From Escherichia coli (GTDB taxonomy: Bacteria > Pseudomonadota > Gammaproteobacteria > Enterobacterales > Enterobacteriaceae): a stretch of 64,000 nucleotides of DNA. Of this stretch, positions 9,336 to 44,205 are shown piece after piece. The stretch lies in assembly GCF_003018115.1 (NCBI RefSeq), contig NZ_CP027457.1. The stretch is one strand, 5' to 3'. Position 1 is the first letter of the stretch; every line of letters begins with the position of its first letter. Below the pieces are notes generated by a model. That model ran no database searches. It worked only from the letters and a program-made list of their open reading frames with translations, and had not been told where the DNA came from. The translations under genes and the position numbers were made by a program.

Positions 9336-9579
9336 TAGCGTTTAATTTAATTCCTCTTAGATTGGGTAATATGAATTTCGAATAGCAGTCATATTTCCTA
9401 ACTCCTTGACTATACTCCAGAAGATAACCTTACAGACGGCATAATGCGCGGTAGCTCACAACCTGATTAAATTTTCTCAGGGGCGAAGGTGTGCCTGCAA
9501 GCCGCCGTCTATGGTTAAACAAGGAGATATTTTTACGGCACGGCGGCTGAACAATTAATTACGACAGGAGTAAGACCTT

Positions 9580-10725: not shown

Positions 10726-10742
10726 CTTCGCTGGGGTGCTTT

Positions 10743-11756
10743 ATGACGTACGCAGTGGAGTTTGACAACGTCTCGCGGTTGTACGGTGACGTGCGCGCAG
10801 TAGATGGCGTCAGTATTGCGATAAAAGATGGTGAGTTCTTCTCTATGCTGGGGCCGTCCGGCTCCGGCAAAACCACCTGCCTGCGCCTGATTGCTGGCTT
10901 CGAACAGCTTTCCGGCGGGGCTATCTCTATCTTTGGTAAACCCGCCAGCAATCTGCCACCGTGGGAGCGGGACGTGAATACTGTCTTTCAGGACTACGCG
11001 CTATTTCCGCATATGTCGATTCTTGACAATGTCGCCTATGGGCTGATGGTCAAAGGCGTGAATAAAAAGCAGCGGCACGCAATGGCGCAAGAGGCGCTGG
11101 AGAAAGTGGCGTTGGGGTTTGTACAGCAACGTAAACCGTCACAACTTTCTGGTGGTCAGCGCCAGCGGGTTGCTATCGCCAGAGCATTGGTGAATGAACC
11201 GCGCGTATTGCTGTTGGATGAACCGCTCGGCGCACTGGATCTCAAATTGCGTGAGCAGATGCAGCTGGAACTGAAAAAACTGCAACAGTCTCTCGGTATC
11301 ACTTTTATCTTCGTTACCCACGATCAGGGCGAAGCATTATCGATGTCCGATCGTGTGGCGGTTTTCAATAATGGACGCATTGAGCAGGTCGATTCCCCGC
11401 GCGATCTCTATATGCGCCCGCGCACGCCGTTTGTTGCCGGGTTCGTTGGTACATCGAATGTTTTTGATGGACTGATGGCAGAGAAACTTTGTGGCATGAC
11501 GGGAAGCTTCGCCCTGCGGCCGGAACATATCCGCCTCAACACCCCTGGTGAACTGCAGGCCAATGGCACGATCCAGGCGGTGCAATATCAGGGCGCGGCA
11601 ACTCGTTTTGAACTGAAATTGAACGGCGGTGAAAAACTGCTGGTGAGTCAGGCCAATATGACAGGCGAAGAACTGCCTGCCACGCTCACGCCCGGACAAC
11701 AGGTGATGGTTTCCTGGTCGCGTGATGTGATGGTGCCGCTGGTTGAGGAGAGGTGA
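10743..11756 (+). CDS. ydcT: ABC transporter ATP-binding protein YdcT
   Basis: Walker A (GPSGSGKTT), ABC signature (LSGGQRQR), Walker B (LLLDEP). Confidence 0.9.
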   Translation: MTYAVEFDNVSRLYGDVRAVDGVSIAIKDGEFFSMLGPSGSGKTTCLRLIAGFEQLSGGAISIFGKPASNLPPWERDVNTVFQDYALFPHMSILDNVAYGLMVKGVNKKQRHAMAQEALEKVALGFVQQRKPSQLSGGQRQRVAIARALVNEPRVLLLDEPLGALDLKLREQMQLELKKLQQSLGITFIFVTHDQGEALSMSDRVAVFNNGRIEQVDSPRDLYMRPRTPFVAGFVGTSNVFDGLMAEKLCGMTGSFALRPEHIRLNTPGELQANGTIQAVQYQGAATRFELKLNGGEKLLVSQANMTGEELPATLTPGQQVMVSWSRDVMVPLVEER

Positions 11757-12698
11757 ATGGCGATGAACGTATTGCAATCACCTTCACGTCCAGGTCTGGG
11801 TAAGGTGTCCGGTTTCTTCTGGCGGAATCCGGGGCTGGGGCTGTTTTTGCTGCTGCTTGGCCCGCTAATGTGGTTTGGCATTGTCTATTTCGGCTCGCTG
11901 CTAACGCTGTTATGGCAGGGCTTTTATACCTTTGACGATTTCACCATGTCGGTAACGCCGGAACTGACGCTGGCGAACATCCGTGCGCTGTTTAATCCGG
12001 CGAATTACGACATCATTCTCCGCACGCTGACTATGGCTGTGGCAGTCACTATCGCCAGCGCCATTCTGGCTTTTCCAATGGCGTGGTATATGGCGCGCTA
12101 TACCAGCGGGAAAATGAAAGCGTTTTTTTATATTGCGGTAATGTTGCCGATGTGGGCGAGCTACATTGTTAAAGCCTATGCCTGGACGTTATTGCTGGCA
12201 AAAGATGGCGTGGCTCAGTGGTTTTTACAACATCTTGGGCTGGAACCACTGCTGACAGCGTTCCTTACATTACCTGCGGTGGGCGGCAATACGCTGTCAA
12301 CTTCCGGGCTGGGGCGCTTTCTGGTGTTTCTCTATATCTGGCTGCCGTTCATGATCCTGCCCGTGCAGGCGGCGCTTGAGCGTTTGCCGCCGTCATTGTT
12401 GCAGGCGTCAGCTGATCTCGGCGCACGTCCACGACAAACCTTTCGCTATGTGGTGCTGCCGCTGGCGATCCCGGGTATTGCCGCTGGCTCTATCTTTACC
12501 TTCTCACTCACACTGGGCGATTTTATCGTCCCGCAGCTGGTTGGCCCGCCAGGATATTTTATCGGCAATATGGTTTATTCCCAGCAGGGGGCGATTGGCA
12601 ATATGCCGATGGCGGCGGCATTCACCCTGGTGCCGATTGTTCTTATCGCACTGTACCTGGCGTTCGTGAAACGTCTGGGAGCGTTCGATGCACTCTGA
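11757..12698 (+). CDS. ydcU: ABC transporter permease YdcU
   Basis: 313-aa hydrophobic ORF; start abuts the ydcT stop. Confidence 0.85.
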
Positions 12699-13482
12699 AC
12701 GCGCACCGTTTCTCCTCAAACTGGCGGCCTGGGGCGGCGTTGTTTTCCTACATTTTCCCATCCTGATAATCGCCGCCTATGCGTTTAACACTGAAGATGC
12801 GGCATTTAGTTTTCCACCGCAAGGCCTGACGCTGCGCTGGTTTGGCGTGGCAGCACAGCGTAGTGATATTCTTGATTCCGTGACACTGTCACTTAAAGTG
12901 GCAGCGCTGGCGACATTAATCGCGCTGGTGTTAGGGACGCTGGCAGCTGCCGCGCTGTGGCGACGAGACTTTTTCGGCAAAAACGCCATTTCGCTGTTAC
13001 TGCTGCTGCCCATTGCGCTGCCGGGCATTGTCACTGGTCTGGCGTTATTAACCGCCTTTAAAACCATCAATCTGGAGCCGGGATTTTTCACCATCGTGGT
13101 CGGTCATGCGACTTTTTGCGTAGTGGTGGTGTTTAACAATGTCATCGCCCGTTTTCGCCGCACCTCCTGGAGTCTGGTTGAGGCGTCAATGGATCTTGGG
13201 GCCAATGGCTGGCAAACCTTCCGCTACGTAGTGTTGCCGAATCTCAGTTCGGCGTTACTGGCAGGAGGAATGCTGGCGTTTGCCTTGTCGTTCGATGAAA
13301 TCATCGTTACGACCTTTACGGCAGGTCATGAACGAACGTTACCGTTGTGGTTGCTCAATCAGCTTGGGCGACCGCGTGATGTACCGGTAACCAACGTGGT
13401 GGCACTGCTGGTTATGTTGGTAACAACCTTGCCGATCCTGGGGGCCTGGTGGCTAACCCGCGAAGGCGACAATGGTCAATAA
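12688..13482 (+). CDS. ydcV: ABC transporter permease YdcV
   Basis: 264-aa hydrophobic ORF overlapping ydcU by 11 nt (translational coupling). Confidence 0.85.
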
Positions 13483-13503
13483 CCACTGATACAGGAAAAT
13501 GCT

Positions 13504-14928
13504 ATGCAACATAAGTTACTGATTAACGGAGAACTGGTTAGCGGCGAAGGGGAAAAACAGCCTGTCTATAATCCGGCAACGGGGGACGTTTTACTGGAGA
13601 TTGCCGAGGCATCCGCAGAGCAGGTCGATGCTGCTGTGCGCGCGGCAGATGCAGCATTTGCCGAATGGGGGCAAACCACGCCGAAAGTGCGTGCGGAATG
13701 TCTGCTGAAACTGGCTGATGTTATCGAAGAAAATGGTCAGGTTTTTGCCGAACTGGAGTCCCGTAATTGTGGCAAACCGCTGCATAGTGCGTTCAATGAT
13801 GAAATCCCGGCGATTGTCGATGTTTTTCGCTTTTTCGCGGGTGCGGCGCGCTGTCTGAATGGTCTGGCGGCAGGTGAATATCTTGAAGGTCATACTTCGA
13901 TGATCCGTCGCGATCCGTTGGGGGTCGTGGCTTCTATCGCACCGTGGAATTATCCGCTGATGATGGCAGCGTGGAAACTGGCTCCGGCGCTGGCGGCAGG
14001 GAACTGCGTAGTGCTTAAACCATCAGAAATTACCCCGCTGACCGCGTTGAAGTTGGCGGAGCTGGCGAAAGATATCTTCCCGGCAGGCGTGATTAACGTA
14101 CTGTTTGGCAGAGGCAAAACGGTGGGCGATCCGCTGACCGGACATCCTAAAGTGCGGATGGTGTCGCTGACGGGCTCTATCGCCACCGGCGAGCACATCA
14201 TCAGCCATACCGCGCCCTCCATTAAGCGTACTCATATGGAACTTGGTGGCAAAGCGCCAGTGATTGTTTTTGATGATGCGGATATTGAAGCAGTGGTCGA
14301 AGGTGTACGTACATTTGGCTATTACAATGCCGGACAGGATTGTACTGCGGCTTGTCGGATCTACGCGCAAAAAGGCATTTACGATACGCTGGTGGAAAAA
14401 CTGGGTGCTGCGGTGGCAACGTTAAAATCTGGTGCGCCGGATGACGAGTCTACGGAGCTTGGACCTTTAAGCTCGCTGGCGCATCTCGAACGCGTCAGCA
14501 AGGCAGTAGAAGAGGCGAAAGCGACAGGGCATATCAAAGTGATCACCGGTGGTGAAAAGCGCAAGGGTAATGGCTATTACTATGCGCCGACGCTGCTGGC
14601 TGGCGCATTACAGGACGATGCCATCGTGCAAAAAGAGGTATTTGGTCCAGTAGTGAGTGTTACGCCCTTCGACAACGAAGAACAGGTGGTGAACTGGGCG
14701 AATGACAGCCAGTACGGACTTGCATCTTCGGTATGGACGAAAGATGTGGGCAGGGCGCATCGCGTCAGCGCACGGCTGCAATATGGTTGTACCTGGGTCA
14801 ATACCCATTTTATGCTGGTGAGTGAAATGCCGCACGGTGGGCAGAAACTTTCTGGTTACGGCAAGGATATGTCACTTTATGGGCTGGAGGATTACACCGT
14901 CGTCCGCCACGTCATGGTTAAACATTAA
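13504..14928 (+). CDS. patD: Gamma-aminobutyraldehyde dehydrogenase PatD (YdcW/Prr)
   Basis: 474-aa aldehyde dehydrogenase-family ORF with catalytic Cys motif (GQDCTAA) and MELGGKAP. Confidence 0.9.
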
Positions 14929-14967
14929 GGATAATATTGCAGATCGTAAGAGTATGAGATGATCTTG

Positions 14968-15001
14968 CGTACTGTCAGAGCACTGATTTCTCTGACAGTA
15001 C
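14968..15001. terminator. Perfect 13-bp inverted repeat between convergent patD and yncL (bidirectional terminator candidate)
   Basis: cgtactgtcagag - cactgatttc - ctctgacagtacg; no clear T-tract, so terminator function is inferred. Confidence 0.45.
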
Positions 15002-25078: not shown

Positions 25079-25897
25079 AAGGATAAATGGCGTTCTCTGT
25101 ATTTATTCGCAATTATCTGTAGGACAAATATGGAGAGCTTGATGAGTCAGAGCTAAAACAGCAATTGATTAATAAACATGTTGATTTATTCAAGAAAATG
25201 GATGTATTTTAAATGTTGATTCTTAATATAACCTAATCAATAGATTATCAAGTGAGAGCTACACATTATTGGAGGGGCAGGGGAAAACACCATTTTGGGA
25301 ACAATGCATCAGGTACTCTTACCACTGAAGCAAGATCATCCGGCACCAGGTGGTGGTGCAGTGCTTTGGAAATGGTCCCCTCGGGGGAGTTGTCATTATT
25401 TTCTATGCTATTTGCTTATTATATTCATCAGGTGAATTTAATAAATTCCTAATTTGAAATATCCACTATTAAGCTAGTGTTTAACGACGTTAAGATGGCA
25501 ATGTGCAGATCATGTTATCAGGGTGGGGCGGTAGCGTATATTCCTTATACAAACCATCATTCATTTCAATGATTGTTATTGAATTATTTATTGTTGTGAA
25601 TAAAAAGACATTATGAATATTGGTTTGACTTTGCATATCAGGTTTTTTATTACTCGCTGTAATGTACGAGCCTGTCGTGAATAACGTCGAGAACCCATCC
25701 GTTGCGTTTGTGATTATTTTGTTGACTAAACAGACACCCGTTTCTCTGAAGTAAAATCCCAGACTAAATCATCACATAACCATGACATTTTTCTGATATT
25801 CCCCGGTAACGCCAGATGTCGACTCGCTTATCTCATCCGCCCGACATGTTGTACATGCAATATGTGCGGATTATTATTCATTTTCACGGAGGTTGCT

Positions 25898-28006
25898 ATG
25901 TCAACCGGATTACGTTTCACACTGGAAGTGGACGGCCTGCCACCGGACGCTTTTGCGGTGGTTTCCTTTCATCTCACCCAGTCACTCTCTTCACTCTTTT
26001 CCCTCGATCTCTCCCTGGTCAGCCAGCAGTTTCTCTCCCTTGAATTTGCGCAGGTGCTGGACAAAATGGCCTACCTGACAATATGGCAGGGTGATGATGT
26101 ACAGCGCCGGGTGAAAGGTGTGGTGACCTGGTTTGAACTGGGGGAGAACGACAAAAACCAGATGCTGTACAGCATGAAGGTGCACCCGCCGCTGTGGCGT
26201 GCCGGTCTGCGCCAGAACTTCCGTATCTTCCAGAACGAGGACATCAAAAGCATCCTCGGCACGATATTGCAGGAAAACGGGGTGACCGAGTGGAGTCCGC
26301 TGTTCAGTGAACCGCATCCTTCCCGTGAGTTTTGTGTCCAGTACGGTGAGACTGATTACGATTTCCTGTGCCGGATGGCGGCGGAGGAAGGCATCTTCTT
26401 TTATGAGGAGCATGCTTACAAAAGTACCGACCAGAGCCTGGTGCTGTGCGACACGGTCCGCCATCTGCCCGAATCTTTTGAAATCCCCTGGAACCCGAAC
26501 CCCCGTACCGAGGTGAGCACCCTCTGCATCAGCCAGTTTCGCTACAGCGCACAAATCCGCCCTTCTTCCGTGGTGACCAAAGACTACACCTTTAAACGCC
26601 CCGGCTGGGCAGGACGTTTTGATCAGGAAGGCCAGCACCAGGATTACCAGCGCACGCAGTATGAGGTGTATGACTACCCCGGACGTTTCAAGGGCGCCCA
26701 CGGGCAGAACTTTGCCCGCTGGCAGATGGAGGGCTGGCGAAACAATGCAGAAACCGCGCGGGGAATGAGTCGCTCGCCGGAGATATGGCCGGGACGGCGA
26801 ATTGTGCTGACGGGGCATCCGCAGGCGAACCTGAACCGGGAATGGCAGGTGGTGGCGAGCGATCTTCACGGCGAACAGCCGCAGGCGGTACCGGGACGCA
26901 GGGGTTCAGGCACCACGCTGGATAACCATTTTGCGGTAATACCGGCAGACCGGACATGGCGACCACAGCCGTTGCTGAAACCGCTGGTGGATGGCCCGCA
27001 GAGCGCCGTCGTGACGGGACCGGCAGGCGAGGAAATCTTCTGCGACGAACATGGTCGCGTGCGGGTGAAATTTAACTGGGACCGCTATAACCCGTCAAAC
27101 CAGGACAGTTCATGCTGGATCCGTGTGGCACAGGCGTGGGCAGGCACCGGCTTTGGCAACCTGGCGATACCGCGTGTGGGTCAGGAGGTGATTGTGGACT
27201 TCCTCAACGGCGATCCGGACCAGCCGATTATTATGGGGCGTACCTACCACCAGGAAAACCGCACACCCGGCAGCCTGCCGGGGACGAAGACGCAGATGAC
27301 CATTCGTTCGAAAACCTATAAGGGCAGCGGGTTTAATGAACTGAAGTTTGACGATGCGACAGGGAAAGAACAGGTCTACATCCACGCGCAGAAGAACATG
27401 AACACCGAGGTGCTGAATAACCGCACCACGGATGTGATAAACAACCATGCTGAGACCATTGGCAACAATCAGATGATTGCGGTTACCAACAATCAGATAC
27501 AGACGGTGGGCGTTAACCAGATAGAGACGGTGGGCAGTAACCAGATCATTAACGTGGGTTCTGTTCAGGTGGAAACGATTGGACTTGTTCGTGCGCTGAC
27601 CGTGGGCGTGGCGTACCAGACGACGGTAGGTGGCATTATGAACACTTCGGTGGCTCTGATGCAGTCCTCGCAGATCGGTTTGCATAAATCGTTGAGGGTC
27701 GGGCTGGGTTATGACGTCAAAGTCGGAAATAACGTTACCTTCACCGTTGGTAAAACGAAAAAGGATGATACCGGGCAGACCGCGATTTACTCCGCCGGTG
27801 AGCATCTGGAGCTCTGCTGTGGTAAGGCAAAGCTGGTGCTGACAAAGGACGGTCAAATTTTTCTCAACGGCACAAAAATTCATTTGCAGGGTAAGGAGCA
27901 GGTTAATGGTGACTCACTGTTGATTAACTGGAACTGTGCAGCCTCGAAATCCCCACCGAAGACCCCTGATGAAAAGCAGGATACGCCGGATATGAGAGAG
28001 TACTGA
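25898..28006 (+). CDS. vgrG: Type VI secretion spike protein VgrG (Rhs-element vgr gene)
   Basis: Start at ATG 25898 (MSTGLRFTLEVDG...) after GGAGG; gp27/gp5-like regions and C-terminal Val-Gly repeats (IQTVGVNQIETVGSNQIINVGSVQVETIG). Confidence 0.85.
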   Translation: MSTGLRFTLEVDGLPPDAFAVVSFHLTQSLSSLFSLDLSLVSQQFLSLEFAQVLDKMAYLTIWQGDDVQRRVKGVVTWFELGENDKNQMLYSMKVHPPLWRAGLRQNFRIFQNEDIKSILGTILQENGVTEWSPLFSEPHPSREFCVQYGETDYDFLCRMAAEEGIFFYEEHAYKSTDQSLVLCDTVRHLPESFEIPWNPNPRTEVSTLCISQFRYSAQIRPSSVVTKDYTFKRPGWAGRFDQEGQHQDYQRTQYEVYDYPGRFKGAHGQNFARWQMEGWRNNAETARGMSRSPEIWPGRRIVLTGHPQANLNREWQVVASDLHGEQPQAVPGRRGSGTTLDNHFAVIPADRTWRPQPLLKPLVDGPQSAVVTGPAGEEIFCDEHGRVRVKFNWDRYNPSNQDSSCWIRVAQAWAGTGFGNLAIPRVGQEVIVDFLNGDPDQPIIMGRTYHQENRTPGSLPGTKTQMTIRSKTYKGSGFNELKFDDATGKEQVYIHAQKNMNTEVLNNRTTDVINNHAETIGNNQMIAVTNNQIQTVGVNQIETVGSNQIINVGSVQVETIGLVRALTVGVAYQTTVGGIMNTSVALMQSSQIGLHKSLRVGLGYDVKVGNNVTFTVGKTKKDDTGQTAIYSAGEHLELCCGKAKLVLTKDGQIFLNGTKIHLQGKEQVNGDSLLINWNCAASKSPPKTPDEKQDTPDMREY

Positions 28007-28073
28007 TCCCGTACCTGTTCGATATTCATTAACAAACCAGCATTAAAAATAAACAGAAGAAGGAATTTGAATC

Positions 28074-31000
28074 ATGAGCGGAAAACCAGCGGCGCGTCAG
28101 GGAGATATGACTCAGTATGGCGGTCCCATTGTCCAGGGTTCGGCAGGTGTAAGAATTGGCGCGCCAACTGGCGTGGCGTGCTCGGTGTGTCCGGGCGGGA
28201 TGACCTCGGGCAACCCGGTGAACCCGCTGCTCGGTGCAAAAGTACAGCCCGGCGAGACGGACCTTGCGCTGCCCGGCCCGCTGCCGTTCATTCTCTCCCG
28301 CACCTACAGCAGCTACCGGACCCGGACGCCTGCACCGGTGGGCGTTTTCGGCCCCGGCTGGAAAGCGCCTTCTGATATCCGCTTACAGCTACGTGATGAC
28401 GGACTGATACTCAACGACAACGGCGGGCGGAGCATTCACTTTGAGCCGCTGCTGCCAGGGGAGGCGGTGTACAGCCGCAGCGAGTCCCTGTGGCTGGTGC
28501 GCGGTGGTAAGGCAGCACAGCCGGACGGCCATACGCTGGCACGGCTGTGGGCGTCGCTGCCGCCGGATATCCGGTTAAGCCCGCATCTTTACCTGGCGAC
28601 CAACAGCGCACAGGGGCCGTGGTGGATACTGGGGTGGTCTGAGCGGGTGCCGGGTGCTGAGGACGTACTGCCAGCGCCGCTGCCGCCGTACCGGGTGCTT
28701 ACCGGGATGGCGGACCGCTTCGGGCGGACGCTGACGTACCGGCGTGACGGACGGTGCCGGGCGTGAGTTCCGTCTGGTGCTGACCACACAGGCGCAGCGG
28801 GCGGAAGAGGCCCGGCAGCAGGCGGTCGTCGCCGGAGCAAAACGACCGGACATTCCTGATTCACTGCCGGAGAGCACAGAGTACGGCCCCGACAGGGGTA
28901 TCCGTCTTTCAGCGGTGTGGCTGATGCACGACCCGGCATACCCGGAGAATCTGCCCGGTGCGCCACTGGCGCGGTACACGTATACGGAAGCCGGTGAACT
29001 GCTGGCGGTATATGACCGCAGCAATACGCAGGTGCGTGCTTTCACGTATGACCCGCAGCACCCGGGCCGGATGGTGGCGCACCGTTACGCGGGAAGGCCG
29101 GAGATGCGCTACCGCTACGACGATACGGGGCGGGTGGTGGAGCAACTGAACCCGGCAGGGTTAAGCTACCGCTATCTTTATGAGCAGGACCGCATCACCG
29201 TCACCGACAGCCTGAACCGGCGTGAGGTGCTGCATACAGAAGGCGGGGCCGGGCTGAAGCGGGTGGTGAAAAAAGAACTGGCGGACGGCAGCGTCACGCG
29301 CAGCGGGTATGACCCGGTGGGGCGGCTTACGGCGCAGACGGACGCGGCGGGACGGCGGACAGAGTACGGTCTGAATGTGGTGTCAGTCGACATCACGGAT
29401 ATCACCACGCCGGACGGGCGGGAGACGAAATTTTACTATAACGACGGGAACCAGTTAACGGCAGTGGTGTACCCGGACGGGCTGGAGAGCAGCCGGGCAT
29501 ATGATGAGCTGGACAGGCTGGTAACGGAGACATCGCGCAGCGGGGAGACAGTACGCTACCGCTATGATGATGCGCACAGTGAATTACCGGCCACAACAAC
29601 AGATGCGACGGGCAGCACCCGGCAGATGACGTGGAGCCGCTACGGTCAGTTGCTGGCGTTCACCGACTGCTCGGGCTACCAGACCCGCTATGAATACGAC
29701 CGCTTCGGCCAGATGACGGCGGTCCACCGCGAGGAAGGCATCAGCCTTTACCGCCGCTATGACAACCGTGGCCGGTTAATCTCGGTGAAAGACGCACAGG
29801 GCCATGAAACGCGGTATGAATACAACGCCGCAGGCGACCTGACTGCCCTCATTACCCCGGACGGCAACCGGAGCGAGACACAGTACGATGCGTGGGGAAA
29901 GGCGGTCAGCACCACGCAGGGCGGGCTGACGCGCAGTATGGAATACGACCTTGCCGGACGCATCACCACGCTGACCAACGAGAACGGCAGCCGGAGTGAG
30001 TTTACCTACGATGCGCTTGACCGGCTGGTACAGCAGCGCGGCTTTGACGGGCGGACGCAACGTTACCACTATGACCTGACCGGAAAACTCACGCAGAGTG
30101 AAGATGAGGGGCTTGTCACCCTCTGGCACTACGACGAATCGGACCGCCTCACTCACCGCACGGTGAACGGCGAACCGGCAGAGCAGTGGCAGTATGATGG
30201 CCACGGCTGGCTGACAGAAATCAGCCACCTGAGCGAAGGCCATCAGGTGGCGGTGCATTACGGTTATGATGATAAGGGCCGCCTGGCCGGGGAGCGCCAG
30301 ACGGTGCATAACCCGGAGACGGGGGAACTGCTGTGGCAGCATGAGACAGAGCACGCATACAACGAACAGGGGCTGGCAAACCGCGTCACGCCGGACGGCC
30401 TGCCGCGGGTGGAGTGGCTGACCTACGGCAGCGGTTATCTTGCGGGGATGAAGCTGGGCGGGACACCTCTGGTCGAGTATACGCGGGACCGCCTGCACCG
30501 GGAAACTGCGCGCAGCTTTGGTAACGGAACGGGCAGTACAGCCGCATATGAACTGACCAGCACTTACACCCCCGCAGGCCGGTTACAGAGCCAGCACCTG
30601 AACAGCCTGATGTATGACCGTGACTACGTGTGGAATGACAACGGCGACCTGGTGCGCATCAGCGGCCCGCGACAGACGCGGGAATACGGCTACAGCGCCA
30701 CGGGCAGGCTGGAGAGCGTGCGCACCCTCGCACCGGACCTGGACATCCGCATCCCGTATGCCACCGACCCGGCGGGAAACCGGCTGCCGGACCCGGAGCT
30801 ACACCCGGACAGCACGCTCACGGCGTGGCCGGATAACCGCATCGCGGAGGATGCGCACTATGTTTACCACTATGATGAATACGGCAGGCTGACGGAGAAG
30901 ACGGACCGCATCCCGGCGGGTGTGATACGGACGGACGACGAGCGGACCCACCACTACCACTACGACAGCCAGCACCGTCTGGTGTTCTACACGCGGATAC

Positions 31001-32250
31001 AGCATGGCGAGCCGCAGGTGGAGAGCCGCTACCTCTGTGACCCGCTGGGACGGCGAATGGCGAAACGGGTATGGCGGCGGGAGCGTGACCTGACAGGATG
31101 GATGTCGCTGTCGCGTAAACCGGAGGTGACGTGGTATGGCTGGGACGGAGACAGGCTGACGACGGTACAGACAGACCAGACCCGTATCCAGACGGTCTAC
31201 CAGCCGGGGAGCTTCACGCCGCTCATCCGTATCGAGACAGAGAACGGCGAACGGGAGAAAATGCAGCGCCGCAGCCTAGCGGAGAAGTTACAGTCGGAAG
31301 GGAGTGAGGACGGTCACGGTGTGGTGTTCCCGGCTGAGCTGGTGAGGATGCTGGACAGGCTGGAGGAAGAAATCCGGGCAGGCCGCGTGAGCAGTGAAAG
31401 CCGGGCGTGGCTTGCGCAGTGCGGGCTGACGGTGGAGCAACTGGCCAGACAGGTGGAGCCGGAATACACACCGGCGCGAAAAGTTCATCTTTATCACTGC
31501 GACCACCGGGGCCTGCCGCTGGCGCTCATCAGCGAAGACGGCAATACGGCGTGGCGCGGGGAGTATGATGAATGGGGCAACCAGCTTAATGAGGAGAACC
31601 CGCATCATGTGTATCAGCCATACCGCCTGCCGGGGCAGCAGTATGATGAGGAGTCGGGGCTGTACTATAACCGCAACCGGTACTATGATCCGTTGCAGGG
31701 GAGGTATATTACCCAGGATCCGATTGGGCCAGTGGGGGGGTGGAATCCCTATAGTTATGTGCTTAATAATCCAGCCCAGTTTATTGACCCAACAGGTTTA
31801 ACTCAAGAGGACAATTGGACCTATGGTGAGGTAGGTAATAGCTGTGTTACGAGTCAACGCGATTTTACTCCCCCGCCCGGACTTGCGGATATGAAAGCCA
31901 GCATTGGCGCTGCCTGCTCAAGAAACAATGCTTCCAGAAACTGCCACCCCGTAGATGGTAGTAATGCTTCTGCACCATCGGATAAAGCCGCATGGGAAAA
32001 TATTCAAAATGCGACAAATGGTAAAGATTTATCTGGTGGTGGAAATATGTTTTGTGTAGGAAATGAGGACTGTGCGGTTGTTCATAGCTGTCGTGAAATA
32101 GTTAATGCTCGACACCCGGCAGGACGAGTGCGTGAACGTGTAACTCCGTTAACAACGTCAGGAACAGCAACGCTCAATGGAACAACAGTTTACTTTTATA
32201 ATGATCCCCGGAATGGTAATTGTCCTGCTCACGAATATATTCCTCAATAA
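28074..32250 (+). pseudogene. rhsE: PAAR-Rhs polymorphic toxin, copy 1, split by a frameshift near 28740-28766 (ORFs 28074..28766 and 28744..32250)
   Basis: N-terminal PAAR-like region, YD-repeat core, DPxGL boundary. Relative to copy 2 about 38 nt (encoding ...[12 protein letters not shown]...) is missing, shifting the frame. Symbol by K-12 position only. Confidence 0.7.
31801..32250 (+). other. Rhs copy 1 C-terminal variable toxin domain (CT1), function unknown
   Basis: About 149 aa following DPTGL at 31786..31800; drop in GC content; Cys-rich; no motif recognised. Confidence 0.6.
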
Positions 32251-32300
32251 AGAAAGGTGGCCAGACTAAGCTCTAGCCACATTTTTTGGAGATCCTTTTC

Positions 32301-32924
32301 ATGAAAAGGTTTTTTATAACATGTTGCGTTATGACATTATTTTTATTTGTTAAATGTAAAGCAGCGTGTGTAACTTCCTTATATGAGGTTCAGCAATCGC
32401 TCTTTACATACATTTATTTGATTAGACAAGACCCTGTTCATTTTGATTCATATATTAAGAATGTGCATAACGAATTAAAAATATTCCATGATATTGATAA
32501 AGCCATGAATATAGCCTCAGATATGGTCAAAATTATTGATATAAAGACCCGTTTATCATTTAATAATGATTTATATATATTACAAGGGGAGCGACAGTAT
32601 GCAATAGTTAAGAGTGAAGGGGAAAGTAGTCAATTAAAATCATCAGCATTTATCATATCTAATTACCCACCATTTAAAAACAAAGTTCTGTTAATTTTAT
32701 CCGCTACTAGTCCCGTTCAGTTGGTTATATTGTCTTTTGATCAATGTCTTAATGTGGAGGTGTTATTTGATTCAATGTCTCCAGTTTTCGCTAAGTATAG
32801 AGAAGATATTAGTGCAACATTACCATTATGGAAGGTTATTTTGACAAAAAATGATATAGAATTATATGAGTACCATAGAACAAATCCATACTCACTTAAC
32901 AAATTATTGAGCATGTCAAAATAA
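32301..32924 (+). CDS. Putative immunity protein for Rhs CT1 (signal peptide/lipoprotein-like)
   Basis: AT-rich ORF directly downstream of rhs; start at ATG 32301 (MKRFFITCCVMTLFLF...) after GGAG; hydrophobic N-terminus with Cys. Confidence 0.6.
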   Translation: MKRFFITCCVMTLFLFVKCKAACVTSLYEVQQSLFTYIYLIRQDPVHFDSYIKNVHNELKIFHDIDKAMNIASDMVKIIDIKTRLSFNNDLYILQGERQYAIVKSEGESSQLKSSAFIISNYPPFKNKVLLILSATSPVQLVILSFDQCLNVEVLFDSMSPVFAKYREDISATLPLWKVILTKNDIELYEYHRTNPYSLNKLLSMSK

Positions 32925-33121
32925 CGGTCAAGTATTCAACGTTGTAATATTATTCCTTTTGCTGAGTGTCTCGAACGGCTAAAGTTGACGTAAAATGCCA
33001 CGTTTTGTGGGCAAACCGAATCGGTTAAAAAGCATGGTCCGGGAAAAGCTAAACATCAGCGCTATCGGTGCCAAATGTGCAGCAGGCCTTTCCAGCCTGA
33101 TTACCAGGGCAGGGCGGGATC

Positions 33122-34410
33122 AGGGAAAGATCATCAGAAGTTCACTTTTTGTACTAAATAATTTGCATTTTATATTTAAAAATTGAGATATTCCTCATTA
33201 CCTGAAGCTGTTTTTTATTGCTTATACATGATCAAATACTCCTTACATAATTAAGGAGAACAAAATGGAACTTAAAAAATTGATGGAACATATTTCTATT
33301 ATCCCTGATTACAGACAAGCCTGGAAAGTGGAACATAAATTATCGGATATTCTACTGTTGACTATTTGTGCCGTTATTTCTGGTGCAGAAAGCTGGGAAG
33401 ATATAGAGGATTTTGGTGAAACACATCTCGATTTTTTGAAGCAATATGGTGATTTTGAAAATGGTATTCCTGTTCACGATACCATTGCCAGAGTTGTATC
33501 CTGTATCAGTCCTGCAAAATTTCACGAGTGCTTTATTAACTGGATGCGTGACTGCCATTCTTCAGATGATAAAGACGTCATTGCAATTGATGGAAAAACG
33601 CTCCGGCACTCTTATGACAAGAGTCGCCGCAGGGGAGCGATTCATGTCATTAGTGCGTTCTCAACAATGCACAGTCTGGTCATCGGACAGATCAGGACGG
33701 ATGAGAAATCTAATGAGATTACAGCTATCCCAGAACTTCTTAACATGCTGGATATTAAAGGAAAAATCATCACAACTGATGCGATGGGTTGCCAGAAAGA
33801 TATTGCAGAGAAGATACAAAAACAGGGAGGTGATTATTTATTCGCGGTAAAAGGAAACCAGGGGCGGCTAAATAAAGCCTTTGAGGAAAAATTTCCGCTG
33901 AAAGAATTAAATAATCCAGAGAATGACAGTTACGCAATTAGTGAAAAGAGTCACGGCAGAGAAGAAATCCGTCTTCATATTGTTTGCGATGTCCCTGATG
34001 AACTTATTGATTTCACGTTTGAATGGAAAGGGCTAAAGAAATTATGCGTGGCAGTCTCCTTTCGGTCCATAATAGCAGAACAAAAGAAAGAGCCAGAAAT
34101 GACGGTCAGATATTATATCAGTTCTGTTGATTTAACCGCAGAGAAGTTCGCCACAGCAATCCGAAACCACTGGCACGTGGAGAATAAGCTGCACTGGCGT
34201 CTGGACGTGGTAATGAATGAAGACGACTGCAAAATAAGAAGAGGAAATGCAGCAGAATTATTTTCAGGGATACGGCACATCGCTATTAATATTTTGACTA
34301 ATGATAAGGTATTCAAGGCAGGGTTAAGACGTAAGATGCGAAAAGCAGCCATGGACAGAAACTATCTGGCGTCAGTCCTTGCGGGGAGCGGGCTTTCGTA
34401 ATCTTGCCCT
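33122..34410 (+). mobile_element. H-repeat (H-rpt, ISAs1-family) element, copy 1
   Basis: About 1.29 kb unit bounded by imperfect inverted repeats AGGGAAAGAT ... ATCTTGCCCT; three near-identical copies in the window. Confidence 0.8.
33265..34401 (+). CDS. ISAs1-family transposase (H repeat-associated protein), copy 1
   Basis: 378-aa [31 protein letters not shown]...; DDE-type transposase family. Confidence 0.85.
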
Positions 34411-35114
34411 GGGGCAACCTGCTTAATGAGGAGAACCCACATCACCTGTATCAGCCATACCGCCTGCCGGGGCAGCAGCATGATGAGGAGTCAGGGCTTT
34501 ATTATAACCGTCACCGGTACTATGACCCGCTACAGGGGAGGTATATCACCCAGGATCCAATCGGGCTAAGAGGTGAATGGAATCTGTATAAATATCCATT
34601 AAACCCTGTTCGGTTTATAGATTCTTTGGGTTTAAAATTCCATGTTAACGGTGATCCAAGTGATTTTAATCAGGCTGTTGAGTATTTAAAACAAGATTCA
34701 CGAATGAAAGAAGCTATAGATTTTTTATCAAGCTCTGAAGAAACCATAAAGATAGAGTATATTGATGAAACCGACGTTAGATTTGACCTGGATAAAATGA
34801 CTATATATTGGAATAGTAAGGCGGCTTTATTTTGTTCAACTGATTTAAAATCGAAATCACAATCACCTGCATTAGGTTTGGGGCATGAGTTTGCTCATGC
34901 GCACTTATATCTTATTGATAAGGATGGTTATATGGGGCTTGTGAGACGTGCGGATGAACAATATAAAAATAAAGAAGAGGCGAGAGTTATCACTTTAATT
35001 GAACAGCATGCGGCGAAAACTTTAGGTGAGTGTACCAGAACAGCATATAATGGAGTGTATTATCGTGTGAATACACCAACGCAGACGGCAACAATAAATG
35101 GCACGCCAGAATAG
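34404..35114 (+). CDS. Orphan Rhs C-terminal fragment with HExxH (zincin-like metallopeptidase) toxin domain (orphan CT-a)
   Basis: Begins at the H-rpt right end with the rhs core 3' end ([18 protein letters not shown]...DPIGL...[13 protein letters not shown]), then a divergent domain containing [10 protein letters not shown]; probably lacks its own start codon. Confidence 0.65.
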
Positions 35115-35651: not shown

Positions 35652-38600
35652 ATGAGCGGAAAACCGGCGGCGCGGCAGGGCGACATGACCCGCAAGGGAC
35701 TGGATATTGTGCAGGGTTCAGCGGGTGTGCTGATAGGTGCGCCGACGGGAGTGGCCTGTTCGGTGTGTCCGGGAGGGATTACCTATGCTAACCCGGTGAA
35801 CCCGGTGCTGGGTGCGAAGGTGCTGCCGGGCGAGACGGACCTTGCGCTGCCCTGCCCGCTGCCGTTTATTCTTTTCCGCGCCTACAGCAGCTACCGGACC
35901 AGAACACCCGCGCCGGTGGGGGTGTTTGGTCCCGGCTGGAAAGCGCCCTTCGATATCCGCTTACAGATACGCGATGAAGGCCTGATACTCAACGACAGCG
36001 GCGGCAGGAGCATTCACTTTGAGCCGCTGTTTCCCGGCGAGATAAGCTACAGCCGCAGCGAGTCACTCTGGCTGGCGCGGGGCGGAGTAGCGGCGCAGCA
36101 CAGTTCGCAGCCGCTAAGCGCGCTCTGGCAGGTGCTGCCGGAAGATGTTCGCCTGAGTCCGCATGTGTACCTGGCGACAAACAGCCTTCAGGGGCCGTGG
36201 TGGATACTCAGCTGGCCGGAGCGGGTGCCGGGGGCGGACGAGGTGCTGCCGCCGGAGCCGCCCGCATACCGGGTGCTGACGGGCGTGGTGGACGGCTTCG
36301 GGCGGACGCTGGCCTTTCACCGGGCAGCGGAGGGTGACGTGGCGGGCGCGGTGACGGGGGTGACGGACGGCGCGGGCCGCCGTTTTCACCTGGTGCTGAC
36401 CACACAGGCGCAGCGGGCGGAAGAGGCCCGTAAACCGCACACCGCTTCGTTATCTTCCCCTGACAGTCCCCGCCCTCTCTCAGCTCCTTCCTTCCCCGAC
36501 ACGCTGCCCGCCGGTACAGAGTACGGTGCCGATAACGGTATCCGGCTGGAGGCGGTATGGCTGACACACGACCCGGCATACCCGGATGAACAGCCGACTG
36601 CGCCGCTGGCGCGCTACACGTACACGGCCGGTGGTGAACTGCGGGCGGTGTATGACCGCAGCGGGACGCAGGTGCGCGGGTTTACTTATGATGCGGAGCA
36701 CGCCGGGCGGATGGTGGCGCACCATTATGCGGGTAGGCCGGAGAGCCGCTACCGGTATGATGATACCGGTCGGGTGACGGAGCAGGTCAACCCGGAGGGG
36801 CTGGACTACCGCTTTGAGTACGGAGAGAGCCGGGTAATCATCACGGACAGCCTGAACCGGCGGGAGGTGCTGTACACGGAAGGCGAGGGTGGCCTGAAGC
36901 GGGTGGTGAAGAAGGAGCATGCCGACGGGAGCATCACCCGCAGCGAGTATGATGAGGCGGGGAGGCTGAAGGCGCAGACGGATGCGGCGGGGCGGCGGAC
37001 GGAGTACCGGCTGCATATGGCGTCTGGAAAGCTGACTTCAGTGGTACTGCCGGACGGCAGGACGGTACGGTATGGTTACAACAACCAGTTGCAACTGACG
37101 TCAGTGACATATCCGGATGGTTTACGCAGCAGCCGGAAATATGACCGTCAGGGCAGGCTGGCGGAAGAGACCTCGCGCAACGGTAACATTACGCGCTGGT
37201 TTTATGATTCTTCCCGCAGTGGCCTGCCCTGTGCGGTGGAAGACGGAACCGGGGTGAGGCGGAGAATAACGCGAAACCGGTACGGTCAGCTTCAGGCGTT
37301 TACGGACTGCTCGGGGTACACGACGCGGTATGAGTATGACCGGTACGGTCAACAAATCGCCGTTCACCGGGAAGAAGGCATCAGCACTTACAGCAGTTAT
37401 AACCCGCGCGGTCAACTGGTCAGTCAGAGGGATGCGCAGGGGCGTGAAACCCGTTATGAGTACAGCGCCGCAGGAGACCTGACAGCAACGGTATCACCGG
37501 ACGGTAAACGCAGCACCATCGCATATGATAAACGCGGGCGTCCGGTGAGTGTGACGGAAGGCGGTCTGACGCGCAGCATGGGGTATGACGCTGCCGGGCG
37601 CATCACCGTGCTGACCAACGAGAACGGCAGCCAGTCCACGTTCCGGTATGACCCGGTTGACAGGCTGACTGAACAGCGCGGTTTTGACGGCCGGACGCAA
37701 CGTTACCACTATGACCTGACCGGAAAACTCACACAGAGTGAAGACGAGGGGCTTATCACCCTCTGGCACTACGATGCGTCGGACCGCATCACGCACCGGA
37801 CGGTGAACGGCGACCCGGCAGAGCAGTGGCAGTATGATGAGCACGGGTGGTTAACCACCCTCAGCCATACCAGTGAAGGCCACCGCGTGTCGGTCCACTA
37901 CGGCTATGACGATAAAGGCCGCCTGACCAGTGAGCGCCAGACGGTGGAGAACCCGGAGACGGAGGAACTGCTGTGGCAGCATGAGACAGAGCACGCATAC
38001 AACGAGCAGGGGCTGGCAAACCGCGTCACGCCGGACAGCCTGCCGCCGGTGGAGTGGCTGACGTATGGCAGCGGCTATCTGGCGGGCATGAAGCTGGGCG
38101 GGACGCCGCTGCTGGAGTTCACGCGCGACCGCCTGCACCGTGAGACGGTGCGCAGCTTCGGCAGCAGGGCAGGCAGTAATGCCGCATATGAACTGACCAG
38201 CACATACACCCCCGCAGGCCAGTTACAGAGTCAGCACCTGAACAGCCTGGTATATGACCGTGACTACGGGTGGAATGACAACGGCGACCTGGTGCGCATC
38301 AGCGGCCCGCGACAGACGCGGGAATACGGCTACAGTGCCACGGGCAGGCTGGAGAGCGTGCGCACCCTCGCACCGGACCTGGACATCCGCATCCCGTATG
38401 CCACGGACCCGGCGGGCAACCGGCTGCCGGACCCGGAGCTGCACCCGGACAGTACCCTCACAGTGTGGCCGGATAACCGCATCGCGAAGGATGCGCACTA
38501 TGTTTACCACTACGATGAATACGGCAGACTGACGGAGAAGACGGACCGCATCCCGGCGGGTGTGATACGGACGGACGACGAGCGGACCCATCACTACCAT

Positions 38601-39845
38601 TACGACAGCCTGCACCGCCTGGTCCATTACATCCGTATCCAATATGAGGAGCCACTGGTGGAGAGCCGCTACCTCTATGATCCGCTGGGCCGCCGGACGG
38701 GTAAACGGGTGTGGCGGCGGGAGCGTGACCTGACGGGGTGGATGTCGCTGTCGCGTAAACCGGAGATGACATGGTACGGCTGGGACGGAGACCGCCTGAC
38801 GACGGTACAGACAGACACCACGCGAATCCAGACGGTCTACCTGCCGGGGAGCTTCACGCCGCTCATCCGCATCGAAACGGAGAACGGCGAACGGGAGAAA
38901 GCGCAGCGTCGCAGTCTGGCGGAGAAGTTACAGTCGGAAGGGAGTGAGGACGGTCACGGTGTGGTGTTCCCGCCTGAACTGGTGATGATGCTGGACAGGC
39001 TGGAGGGAGAGATACGGGCAGACCGCGTGAGCCGTGAAAGTCGCCAGTGGCTGGCGCAGTGCGGACTGACGGTGGAGCAACTGGCCAGACAGGTGGAGCC
39101 GGAATACACACCGGCGCGAAAAGTTCATCTCTATCACTGCGACCACCGTGGCCTGCCGCTGGCGCTCATCAGCGAAGACGGCAATATAGCGTGGAACGCG
39201 GAGTATGATGAGTGGGGCAACATGCTGAACGAGGAGAACCCGCATCACCTGTATCAGCCATACCGCCTTCCGGGTCAGCAGTACGATGAGGAGTCGGGGC
39301 TGTACTATAACCGGAACCGGTACTATGATCCGTTGCAGGGGAGGTATATCACCCAGGACCCGATAGGGCTGATGGGGGGATGGAACCCTTACCTTTATCC
39401 GTTAAATCCTGTCACAAATACTGACCCTCAGGGGTTAGAAGCGATTCTTCCTGGTCCGTTCCCCTTCCCAATTCCATTGCCAAAAAGTCCTGTACAGCAG
39501 GAAGCAGATGCAAATGCAGCAAAAACATTGACAAAATGGTGGAAAAACTTTGGAGATGCCATTAATAATCCGCCACCTCCTGGTAATTGTTCTAATGATT
39601 ATTATGAACATCTGAAAAATCAAAAAGAAGCTATTTGCAACCAAAAAAGAAAGTGTTACCCAACCGATAGTTGTGAAACTATACTTCAGAAAGGTGTGTA
39701 TGGTCTTGCTTGTGTATCAGCAAGGAATAATATTATGAATCAATGTTTTAATGGAGGTGATTTACGGCATCAGCTTGAAAGAGAAACGGTCAGGGGAACT
39801 ATGATGTCATGTACTACATTGGCTGTAATAAAAGGATGTTTATAA
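35652..39845 (+). CDS. Intact PAAR-Rhs polymorphic toxin, copy 2 (1397 aa)
   Basis: AAGGA Shine-Dalgarno; N-terminal PAAR-like region (CSVCPGG), YD repeats, conserved ...PxxxxDPxGL boundary (DPQGL at 39423..39437), variable C-terminus. Confidence 0.9.
39438..39845 (+). other. Rhs copy 2 C-terminal toxin domain (CT2), Cys-rich, function unknown
   Basis: About 135 aa after DPQGL; Pro-rich linker then Cys-rich segment (CSNDYYEHL...[14 protein letters not shown]...CVSARNN...C); AT-rich. Confidence 0.6.
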
Positions 39846-40370
39846 ATGGGAAAAGACGAGATCATAGATTATATTCAGAAAACGTTTTCTGAATATCCAG
39901 ATTATTTGAAAAATGGGGTCGTTGATGAAGACAACATTGCATATTGCCATGACGCTATAAACCTTTTTTCTGGAAAGAGTTGGATTGAATTAATGGCCAG
40001 TGATCTTTACCATTCTGAAGATGCTGTCATGTGTCTCACTAAACCAGCATTCTCATATTATATTGCAGCCTATTTAAAACTTTTTATTGAAAATTATTAC
40101 GAAGCTGATGCTTTAGTGGATACTATTTTAAATATGCTCACTCCTCCTGTTAGGAATGGTATCCCCAGCACTACATGGATAGCAAAAAATCTTGATTGCT
40201 TTAGTCGTAATAAAAGGGTGGCTATTTCTTTTACATTCCAATATTTATGTAATGAATATAATGATCCAAATACTGAAAAGGCGTTAAATATATATTGGGG
40301 ACAGTATCTGAATGAATCATTGCTTATTAAAAATGTACAGAACTCTAAAAATAAATGTAAATCACAGTAA
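39846..40370 (+). CDS. Putative cytoplasmic immunity protein for Rhs CT2
   Basis: 174-aa ORF whose ATG overlaps the rhs stop (TAAATG); no signal peptide; AT-rich. Confidence 0.65.
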   Translation: MGKDEIIDYIQKTFSEYPDYLKNGVVDEDNIAYCHDAINLFSGKSWIELMASDLYHSEDAVMCLTKPAFSYYIAAYLKLFIENYYEADALVDTILNMLTPPVRNGIPSTTWIAKNLDCFSRNKRVAISFTFQYLCNEYNDPNTEKALNIYWGQYLNESLLIKNVQNSKNKCKSQ

Positions 40371-40582: not shown

Positions 40583-41870
40583 AGGGAAAGATCATCAGAA
40601 GTTCACTTTTTGTACTAAATAATTCGCATTTTATGTTTAAAAATTGAGATATTCCTCATTACCTGAAGCTGTTTTTATTGCTTATACATGATCAAATACT
40701 CCTTACATAATTAAGGAGAACAAAATGGAACTTAAAAAACTGATGAAACATATTTCTATTATCCCCGATTACAGACAAGCCAGGAAAGTAGAACATAAAT
40801 TGTCAGATATTCTACTGTTGACTATTTGTGCCGTTATTTCTGGTGCAGAAGGCTGGGAAGATATAGAGGATTTTGGGGAAACACATCTCGATTTTTTGAA
40901 GCAATATGGTGATTTTGAAAATGGCATTCCTGTTCACGATACCATTGCCAGAGTTGTATCCTGTATCAGTCCTGCAAAATTTCACGAGTGCTTTATTAAC
41001 TGGATGCGTGACTGCCATTCTTCAGATGATAAAGACTTCATTGCAATTGATGGAAAAACGCTCCGGCACTCTTATGACAAGAGTCGCCGCAGGGGAGCGA
41101 TTCATGTCATTAGTGCGTTCTCAACAATGCACAGTCTGGTCATCGGACAGATCAAGACGGATGAGAAATCTAATGAGATTACAGCTATCCCAGAACTTCT
41201 TAACATGCTGGATATTAAAGGAAAAATCATCACAACTGATGTGATGGGTTGCCAGAAAGATATTGCAGAGAAGATACAAAAACAGGGAGGTGATTATTTA
41301 TTCGCGGTAAAAGGAAACCAGGGGCGGCTAAATAAAGCCTTTGAGGAAAAATTTCCGCTGAAAGAATTAAATAATCCAGAGCATGACAGTTACGCAATCA
41401 GTGAAAAGAGTCACAGCAGAGAAGAAATCCGTCTTCATATTGTTTGCGATGTCCCTGATGAACTTATTGATTTCACGTTTGAATGGAAAGAGCTGAAGAA
41501 ATTATGCGTGGCAGTCTCCTTTCGGTCAATAATAGCAGAACAAAAGAAAGAGCCAGAAATGACGGTCAGATATTATATCAGTTCTGCTGATTTAACCGCA
41601 GGGAAGTTCGCCACAGCAATCCGAAGCCACTGGCACGTGGAGAATAAGCTGCACTGGCGTCTGGACGTGGTAATGAATGAAGACGACTGCAAAATAAGAA
41701 GAGGAAATGCAGCAGAATTATTTTCAGGGATACGGCACATTGCTATTAATATTTTGACGAATGATAAGGTATTCAAGGCAGGGTTAAGACGTAAGATGCG
41801 AAAAGCAGCCATGGACAGAAACTATCTGGCGTCAGTCCTTGTGGGGAGCGGGCTTTCGTAATCTTGCCCT
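40583..41870 (+). mobile_element. H-repeat (ISAs1-family) element, copy 2
   Basis: Same terminal sequences as copy 1. Confidence 0.8.
40725..41861 (+). CDS. ISAs1-family transposase (H repeat-associated protein), copy 2
   Basis: 378-aa ORF nearly identical to copy 1 with a few substitutions. Confidence 0.85.
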
Positions 41871-42486
41871 GCCAGGGCAGCAACACGATGAGGAGTCGGG
41901 GCTGTATTATAACCGTCACCGGTACTACGATCCGTTGCAGGGGTGGTATATCATCCAGGACCCGATTGGGCTGAAGGGGGGATGGAATCTGTACCAATAT
42001 CCGCTGAATCCAGTGCAACACGTTGATCCATTAGGGCTTAGTACTATGATAATAGGTAACGGCCCCGTTCCTGATAATCCTTTTGGGCATGCTGCGGCGG
42101 CAAATCGATATGGATTAATGAGTTCGGGAACTGGGGATGAGATGGGAGCCTCTGTCTCTGATTATTTTAAAAAGATGCAACCCCGCAGAGATACCTGGAT
42201 TTGGATAATAGATACAACAGATGAAGAAGAACAATGTATGATGAATAAGGCAATAGACCTTAATAAAAAACTAAAAACTATTAACCTCGGGCCTCTTCCT
42301 GTTTTAAATAATTGTTTTAGCCGAACGAACATGATTTTTGAGGCGTGCGGGTTTAACAACCCCTCTATGAATACAAATGCGCCTATAAGCCTACAAGTGC
42401 TCGGTGAGCTTTATGGATATCAAAGATATATTATGCCTAAAGGTCCTTTCACTGGATTCCCATTTGAATTTCAAGAGGTAAAGTAA
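41839..42486 (+). CDS. Orphan Rhs C-terminal fragment with unknown toxin domain (orphan CT-b)
   Basis: From the H-rpt right end: [35 protein letters not shown]...[13 protein letters not shown], then a divergent about 149-aa domain ([10 protein letters not shown]..., two Cys). Confidence 0.6.
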
Positions 42487-42917: not shown

Positions 42918-44205
42918 AGGGAAAGATCATCAGAAGTTCACTCTTTGTACTAAATAATTCGCATTTTATGTTTAAAAATTGAGATATTCCTCATTACCTG
43001 AAGCTGTTTTTATTGCTTATACATGATCAAATACTCCTTACATAATTAAGGAGAACAAAATGGAACTTAAAAAACTGATGGAACATATTTCTATTATCCC
43101 CGATTACAGACAAGCCTGGAAAGTAGAACATAAATTGTCAGATATTCTACTGTTGACTATTTGTGCCGTCATTTCTGGTGCAGAGGGTTGGGAAGATATA
43201 GAGGATTTTGGTGAAACACATCTCGATTTTTTGAAGCAATATGGTGATTTTGAAAATGGTATTCCTGTTCACGATACCATTGCCAGAGTTGTATCCTGTA
43301 TCAGTCCTGCAAAATTTCACGAGTGCTTTATTAACTGGATGCGTGACTGCCATTCTTCAGATGATAAAGACGTCATTGCAATTGATGGAAAAACGCTCCG
43401 GCACTCTTATGACAAGAGTCGCCGCAGGGGAGCGATTCATGTCATTAGTGCGTTCTCAACAATGCACAGTCTGGTCATCGGACAGATCAAGACGGATGAG
43501 AAATCTAATGAGATTACAGCTATCCCAGAACTTCTTAACATGCTGGATATTAAAGGAAAAATCATCACAACTGATGCGATGGGTTGCCAGAAAGATATTG
43601 CAGAGAAGATACAAAAACAGGGAGGTGATTATTTATTCGCGGTAAAAGGAAACCAGGGGCGGCTAAATAAAGCCTTTGAGGAAAAATTTCCGCTGAAAGA
43701 ATTAAATAATCCAGAGCATGACAGTTACGCAATCAGTGAAAAGAGTCACAGCAGAGAAGAAATCCGTCTTCATATTGTTTGCGATGTCCCTGATGAACTT
43801 ATTGATTTCACGTTTGAATGGAAAGGGCTGAAGAAATTATGCGTGGCAGTCTCCTTTCGGTCCATAATAGCAGAACAAAAGAAAGAGCCAAAAATGACGG
43901 TCAGATATTATATCAGTTCTGCTGATTTAACCGCAGAGAAGTTCGCCACAGCAATCCGAAACCACTGGCACGTGGAGAATAAGCTGCACTGGCGTCTGGA
44001 CGTGGTAGTGAATGAAGACGACTGCAAAATAAGAAGAGGAAATGCAGCAGAATTATTTTCAGGGATACGGCACATTGCTATTAATATTTTGACGAATGAT
44101 AAGGTATTCAAGGCAGGGTTAAGACGTAAGATGCGAAAAGCAGCCATGGACAGAAACTATCTGGCGTCAGTCCTTGCGGGGAGCGGGCTTTCGTAATCTT
44201 GCCCT
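42918..44205 (+). mobile_element. H-repeat (ISAs1-family) element, copy 3
   Basis: Same terminal sequences; right flank is the native pptA upstream region. Confidence 0.8.
43060..44196 (+). CDS. ydcC: ISAs1-family transposase (H repeat-associated protein), copy 3
   Basis: 378-aa ORF; symbol by position next to pptA as in K-12. Confidence 0.8.

Follow-up and report, generated by a model that had tools for sequence, protein, structure and literature searches.

The gene we call rhs copy 1, in a 64,000-nucleotide stretch of an Escherichia coli chromosome (NZ_CP027457.1; hereafter, the window), is most likely, with a probability of about 0.85, a true pseudogene of the vgrG-linked effector of the rhsE locus, split by the loss of 38 nt, and its pseudogenization is probably recent. 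Public genomes already include annotated examples of such an event, and even of this junction. The gene is part of an island of vgrG and rhs genes located between yncH and pptA, which is the rhsE locus of the E. coli chromosome. Directly 5' of it, an intact vgrG (25898–28006, plus strand) encodes a type VI secretion system (T6SS) spike protein with the Pfam domains Phage_GPD, Phage_base_V, and Gp5_trimer_C, and the T6SS core genes lie outside the window. The mechanical ORF of this vgrG begins at 25862, but a start at 25898, with a strong Shine-Dalgarno (SD) signal (−10.2 kcal/mol), gives it the length of its orthologs (2109 nt, annotated as “type VI secretion system Vgr family protein”). On the 3' side of copy 1, an ORF encoding a hypothetical protein of 197 aa (32331–32924, plus strand) is, by its position, a candidate immunity gene for the copy 1 toxin; it has no family match in Pfam or NCBIfam, and an orthologous 594-nt gene annotated as “hypothetical protein” also stands 3' of the rhs gene in NZ_CM128562 and in strain F9792.

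Further downstream lies rhs copy 2 (35652–39845, plus strand), an intact gene for a protein of 1397 aa with an Ntox16 tip, the exact sequence of which is found on 36 contigs in a collection of 15 billion proteins. The Ntox16 domain occupies residues 1310–1388 (39582–39818, E 6.2e-11), and the ORF that begins at the copy 2 stop codon (39846–40370) has a weak match to DUF6714 (17.4 bits for a cut-off of 27). Three ORFs encode ISAs1/H-repeat transposases of 378 aa (33265–34401, 40725–41861, and 43060–44196), the first two followed by 5'-truncated rhs tip fragments (34404–35114 and 41839–42486, respectively); these transposase genes and tip fragments represent the usual array of orphan modules of Rhs elements. 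A search for Rfam families across 20000–46000 of the window found none.

Copy 1 and copy 2 align at the DNA level with one gap of exactly 38 columns, located after window position 28737, and the same 38-nt gap appears when copy 1 is compared with two intact E. coli orthologs from the same locus (NZ_CM128562 and NZ_LR536431); the deletion of about 38 nt that an earlier note had proposed to split copy 1 is, therefore, of precisely that length. In these two orthologs, as in rhsD of K-12, the 10-bp sequence ACCGGCGTGA occurs twice with a period of 38 nt, and the intact alleles read ...GACGT ACCGGCGTGA GGCCGCCGGTGACCTGGCCGGGGAAATC ACCGGCGTGA CGGACGG... at this place. Alignments to them show a single retained ACCGGCGTGA in the window (28738–28747, plus strand), within or at the edges of which the deletion junction falls, and the 38 nt lost (ACCGGCGTGAGGCCGCCGGTGACCTGGCCGGGGAAATC in the intact alleles) correspond to one repeat plus the 28-nt spacer. 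At the corresponding place in copy 2, this pair of 10-bp repeats is missing. When the 38 nt are put back, copy 1 becomes a single ORF of 1404 aa with no further stop, so that their loss is the only lesion of the gene. The loss of one repeat together with the spacer is what replication slippage on short direct repeats classically produces. With two repeats in the ancestral arrangement and a derived one that keeps one of them and has lost exactly the other plus the spacer, we infer that a slipped-strand deletion produced the 38-nt loss. The intact gene contains seven pairs of close direct repeats of at least 10 bp, and because of the YD-repeat periodicity the spacing is divisible by three in five of them, only those 38 and 95 nt apart being out of frame. 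Concerning a possible DNA hairpin joining the two repeats, a 9-bp inverted repeat is present but its fold is no better than those of shuffled sequences (z −1.55). Length variation is also found in the variable stretch past the deletion site, where the window has one GCGGAAGAGGCCCGGCAGCAG (28801–28821) and the intact allele of VREC0864 has two in perfect tandem, a 21-nt length polymorphism that keeps the frame.

As a consequence of the deletion, the ORF list contains two entries for copy 1, 28074–28766 (230 aa) and 28744–32250 (1168 aa), both on the plus strand, versus the single ORF of copy 2. The first encodes 224 native residues followed by six frameshifted ones (DGRCRA) and a TGA codon, and contains the PAAR-like N-terminus, the DUF6531 plug (E 8.8e-20), and the first hairpins of the shell. 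This premature stop codon (28764–28766, plus strand, in the shifted frame) is owed partly to a G-to-T change specific to the window, at a position where both BE311, a carrier of the same junction described below, and VREC0864 have G; in the native downstream frame the change is synonymous (CGG to CGT). The +1 frame is open from 28735 through 32250, with its first GTG at 28744, and encodes the YD-repeat shell, the RHS-associated core up to about 31800, and a C-terminal toxin tip of 149 aa (31801–32247) for which we found no Pfam or NCBIfam match. The second ORF matches PF05593 (RHS_repeat, E 1.3e-69), PF03527 (E 6.6e-16), TIGR01643, and TIGR03696, and thus has the YD/RHS repeats and the RHS-associated core ahead of a variable C-terminal tip. 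Translation reproduced the reading-frame strings given for both copies in the earlier note, and the N-terminal module is indeed parted from the shell and the toxin, as it had stated, with the first ORF matching positions 1–226 of the RHS_core profile NF041261 (491 bits) and the second, positions 237–1261 (2136.8 bits). In copy 2 and in an intact ortholog, the whole profile (1–1261) is matched by one protein, with 2605 and 2723 bits, respectively. Membership in this equivalog family (1261 positions, cut-off of 2000 bits) refers to one polypeptide extending over the whole profile, and copy 1 encodes no such polypeptide. Copy 1 is a disrupted member of the RHS element core family, in the sense that its DNA belongs to the family and no single product does.

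The break falls inside the shell, between Arg224 and Glu225, about 175 residues past the PAAR-like N-terminus and about 100 past the plug domain (DUF6531, residues 46–123 in Pfam), and not just after the PAAR region, where the note had placed it. The Pfam family PAAR_motif (PF05488) itself matches only residues 2–20, over profile positions 51–69, with 16 bits (E 0.015) and hence below the gathering cut-off of 27, although the literal letters PAAR are present. Among proteins of solved structure, the best sequence match to the N-terminal region is Tse5 (8cp6, 3e-121), which consists of a PAAR-like N-terminal fragment (residues 1–47), a self-cleavage site at K47|P48, a DUF6531 plug (48–124), and then the barrel (PMC10684867). 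P48 of Tse5 aligns with P48 of copy 1, which puts the cleavage site at residues 47/48 here, and on this layout the frameshift lies about 100 residues into the barrel. In an alignment of 22 diverse homologs, the deleted segment is located between two invariant hairpin turns, D214-R-F-G217-R and D239-G-x-G242-R243. An AlphaFold2 model of residues 1–430 of the repaired protein (mean pLDDT 84, with blocks of 90–97 in this region) has strands 219–224 and 234–238 linked by a loop (225–233), so that, according to the model, the deletion takes out this loop and most of strand 234–238, that is, part of a β-hairpin of the shell. Residues 252–266, just downstream of the deletion, are modeled as a helix. 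Among PDB structures, the model is most similar to the shell of Tse5 (8cp6_B; TMq 0.68, Foldseek E 7.7e-31) and next to 7q97, 8qja, and 7pq5, and the succession of a DUF6531 plug and a β-barrel like those of solved Rhs shells corresponds to the T6SS Rhs effector fold of the Tse5/RhsA/Rhs1 type.

These observations can be combined into a simple course of events. During replication, the nascent strand would have slipped between the two ACCGGCGTGA copies 38 nt apart, losing one repeat and the 28-nt spacer and, as 38 is not divisible by three, shifting the frame. The ribosome would then leave the native frame after Arg224, add six wrong residues, and stop at 28764–28766, having made only a stub of 230 aa that comprises the PAAR-like N-terminus, the N-terminal plug, and some 100 shell residues. 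The rest of the shell, the aspartyl-protease plug, and the toxin would remain in the +1 frame with no start of their own, and would not be expected to be made in useful amounts. Loss of function would follow, together with relaxed selection in a lineage presumably devoid of a T6SS, a loss shown for F9792 only. Two points speak against a pseudogene, namely that the downstream frame of 1168 codons is still fully open and that vgrG is intact, and because of them the event must be either very recent or have left a remainder that is under some selection. Nevertheless, among the three possibilities mentioned in the earlier note (a true pseudogene, a sequencing error, or a two-part protein), the first is well supported by a deletion bounded by repeats, by the fact that this is the sole lesion, and by the absence of a downstream start signal.

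The second of these possibilities, in its broader form, is that the 38 nt are truly present in the strain and were lost during consensus building or library amplification, or are missing only in a minority of the sequenced culture. We consider it unlikely. It is true that, in the collection of 15 billion proteins, a single contig carries proteins identical to the 230-aa and 1168-aa products, leaving this allele without an independent replicate, and that the region is rich in multiple copies of rhs and ISAs1. Moreover, over 29500–31500 the rhs core differs by 3–9% from that of F9792, the closest relative on the flanks, whereas the flanks are identical, which makes a mis-assembly of paralogs conceivable. 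Against this, read errors concern single bases or homopolymers, whereas the loss of 38 nt with its limits set precisely by 10-bp direct repeats has the signature of a biological deletion and argues strongly against an artefact, no second disruption of the frame exists across 4.2 kb, and no other rhs copy in the window carries this junction and could have served as the template of a chimera. The same junction also exists in several complete assemblies of another, unrelated E. coli clone.

A 60-nt junction probe found full-length matches in four of 5426 complete E. coli genomes (BE311, F41, K99S, and EC24.26), in each of which the same 38 nt are missing from this locus, with the same junction, 3' of an intact vgrG. 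Three of these carriers, which we compared, are 100% identical over 10 kb and so belong to one clone, ACCGGCGTGA being present once in BE311, F41, and EC24.26, and in them RefSeq labels the gene “RHS element core protein, frameshifted”. Their rhs allele is nevertheless a different one, with 95.3% identity over the locus and a ydcD-type tip, and it has no TGA at the position of that in the window, such that the shifted frame continues for about 30 codons more. The flanks of the junction in the window are closer to the intact VREC0864 allele than to BE311, which, together with the difference between alleles, points to an independent origin in two lineages; the 38-nt deletion has probably arisen twice at the same repeat. 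Beyond these four genomes, the exact 36-nt junction had no match in 100,044 species-representative genomes or in JGI metagenome contigs.

The toxin tip of the allele in the window and the downstream gene (31500–33000) show one mismatch per 500-nt bin with E. coli strain 2824, and the nearest intact alleles reach only ~96% identity over the 5' 1.3 kb. Compared with F9792, the core (29500–31500) has 24–47 mismatches per 500 nt, against 0–1 in the flanks and in the tip/immunity region (31500–33000). This mosaicism suggests gene conversion among rhs paralogs or, possibly, the mixing of paralogs in one of the assemblies. Since the nearest intact alleles are at ~96% identity and the core is mosaic with respect to F9792, estimates of dN/dS or of the age of the allele would be meaningless. 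In a search among representatives, several database Rhs proteins (P0061, P0068, and P0070–P0073) were derivatives with in-frame internal deletions, in which the N-terminal region (residues ~193–230) is fused either to the DPxGL region or to the distal core. Repeat-mediated collapse of rhs genes is, on this evidence, frequent.

Less probable than an artefact is that a functional effector is still made from the split gene. Its N-terminal fragment of 230 aa and a C-terminal fragment re-initiated at GTG 28744 or 28777 would form a non-covalent cocoon that could be loaded on VgrG, the former docking on the spike and recruiting the shell and toxin. Termination-reinitiation is geometrically possible, as the two frames overlap by 32 nt (28735–28766) with a GTG 20 nt before and another 11 nt after the stop codon, and both the downstream ORF and vgrG are intact. 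Rhs fragments are known to stay associated after the natural N-terminal cleavage, and the barrel of Tc toxins is lengthened and closed by a second protein (PMC8636562, PMC10684867), the TcB/TcC cocoon being split at a designed interface (PMC8636562); a frameshift with loss of a strand is like neither of these cases. Should copy 1 nevertheless work in this way, a T6SS Rhs cocoon would tolerate a breakage in its first turn, just as the Tc cocoon is naturally made of two proteins. However, the two pieces are not complementary, given that 13 residues including a modeled β-strand are missing and six wrong ones are added, and the natural cleavage site aligns to 47/48, at the plug boundary, and not to 224. 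There is no sign of a ribosome-binding site either: SD pairing upstream of GTG 28744 and 28777 amounts to −3.2 and −3.3 kcal/mol, respectively, against a background median of −3.3, in comparison with −5.6 to −10.2 kcal/mol for real starts in the window, and no promoter-like sites were found in 27800–29300. Likewise, the split is not conserved, since full-length homologs are single chains and, among 2542 representative homologs, the ends of fragments are scattered without any accumulation at residues 222–237. The three other carriers compared, which have no stop codon nearby, are annotated as pseudogenes. The note's suggestion of a two-part protein is, consequently, very improbable for a break situated in a β-hairpin with neither a ribosome-binding signal nor a split conserved among homologs. 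A programmed +1 recoding event joining the overlapping frames into a nearly full-length protein deserves practically no credence, in spite of the +1 position of the second ORF relative to the first and the rare CGG codons in the overlap, because the overlap (ACG TAC CGG CGT GAC GGA CGG TGC CGG GCG TGA), read directly, contains no known +1 slippery motif, no SD-like stimulator precedes it, no Rfam element was found, the recoded product would still miss 13 shell residues, and the arrangement is missing from 5422 of the 5426 complete genomes; we have rejected it for its lack of motif, stimulator, and conservation.

The pseudogene interpretation can also be placed in the context of the decay seen in F9792, the closest complete genome according to the flanks; window positions 9500–15000 (patD and ydcS-V) are 100% identical to O169:H41-type strains, F9792 among them. 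In this genome (NZ_CP024273.1, 1562000–1586000), a separate deletion of 2522 bp, with TGG microhomology, has removed the equivalent of window positions 26609–29130 and joined the 5' third of vgrG (up to nucleotide ~711) to the rhs core, so that the site of the 38-nt deletion is gone too. The aspV T6SS cluster of F9792 (NZ_CP024273.1, 129100–138600) is a remnant in which hcp is intact, a gene with a VasL domain is frameshifted, and a C-terminal fragment of TssM abuts a 5'-truncated rhs followed by ISAs1. If the strain of the window shares the T6SS loss of F9792, its vgrG–rhs island would be an orphan under relaxed selection.

Several implications, mainly for annotation, follow from considering copy 1 as a pseudogene. 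The two ORFs should be joined in a single entry marked as an rhs pseudogene with a frameshift, instead of being described as genes for a small PAAR/DUF6531 protein and for an Rhs protein lacking its N-terminus. The vgrG-proximal effector is probably dead in this strain, in which case copy 2, with its Ntox16 tip, would be the only complete Rhs protein encoded in the window. More generally, the case illustrates that deletion hot spots are inherent in the repetitive coding sequence of rhs genes; two E. coli lineages seem to have lost the 38 nt independently of each other through one and the same pair of 10-bp repeats. Orphan Rhs modules have been described as a recombination reservoir in Salmonella (PMC3967940) and, by analogy, the broken copy 1 may serve as a reservoir of toxin/immunity modules for recombination.

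The closest known systems are the “RHS element core proteins” encoded at the rhsE locus of other E. coli strains (WP_134439952.1 in NZ_LR536431 and WP_446847537.1 in NZ_CM128562), which occupy the same site (yncH–vgrG–rhs–ISAs1–pptA) and have ~92–94% nucleotide identity across the whole gene and the same domain order. They differ in being intact ORFs of 1411 aa with both ACCGGCGTGA copies, whereas the gene of the window is split and devoid of the 38 nt. Tse5 of Pseudomonas aeruginosa also resembles copy 1, with a short PAAR-like N-terminus, a P-V-N-P cleavage-site motif at position 48, a DUF6531 plug, and a YD barrel. Nevertheless, Tse5 is produced as one chain that cleaves itself at K47|P48 and L1168|I1169, whereas the discontinuity of copy 1 is genetic, lies at 224/225 inside the barrel, and involves the loss of residues. 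A naturally split cocoon of the TcB/TcC type would be expected to have a translation start for each part, a split at a structural boundary, and conservation of the split among homologs, which is not what copy 1 shows. Other decayed loci offer parallels for its fate. The rhsE gene of K-12 is a pseudogene and an example of the decay of Rhs loci by deletion. A rhsG–tssM deletion has been described for ST410-B/H24 (PMC10711316), in which a T6SS/Rhs locus has likewise decayed by deletion and to which the tssM–rhs junction of F9792 is similar. The deletions in K-12 rhsE and ST410-B/H24 are of kilobase scale, whereas copy 1 was most likely inactivated by a slippage event of only 38 nt.
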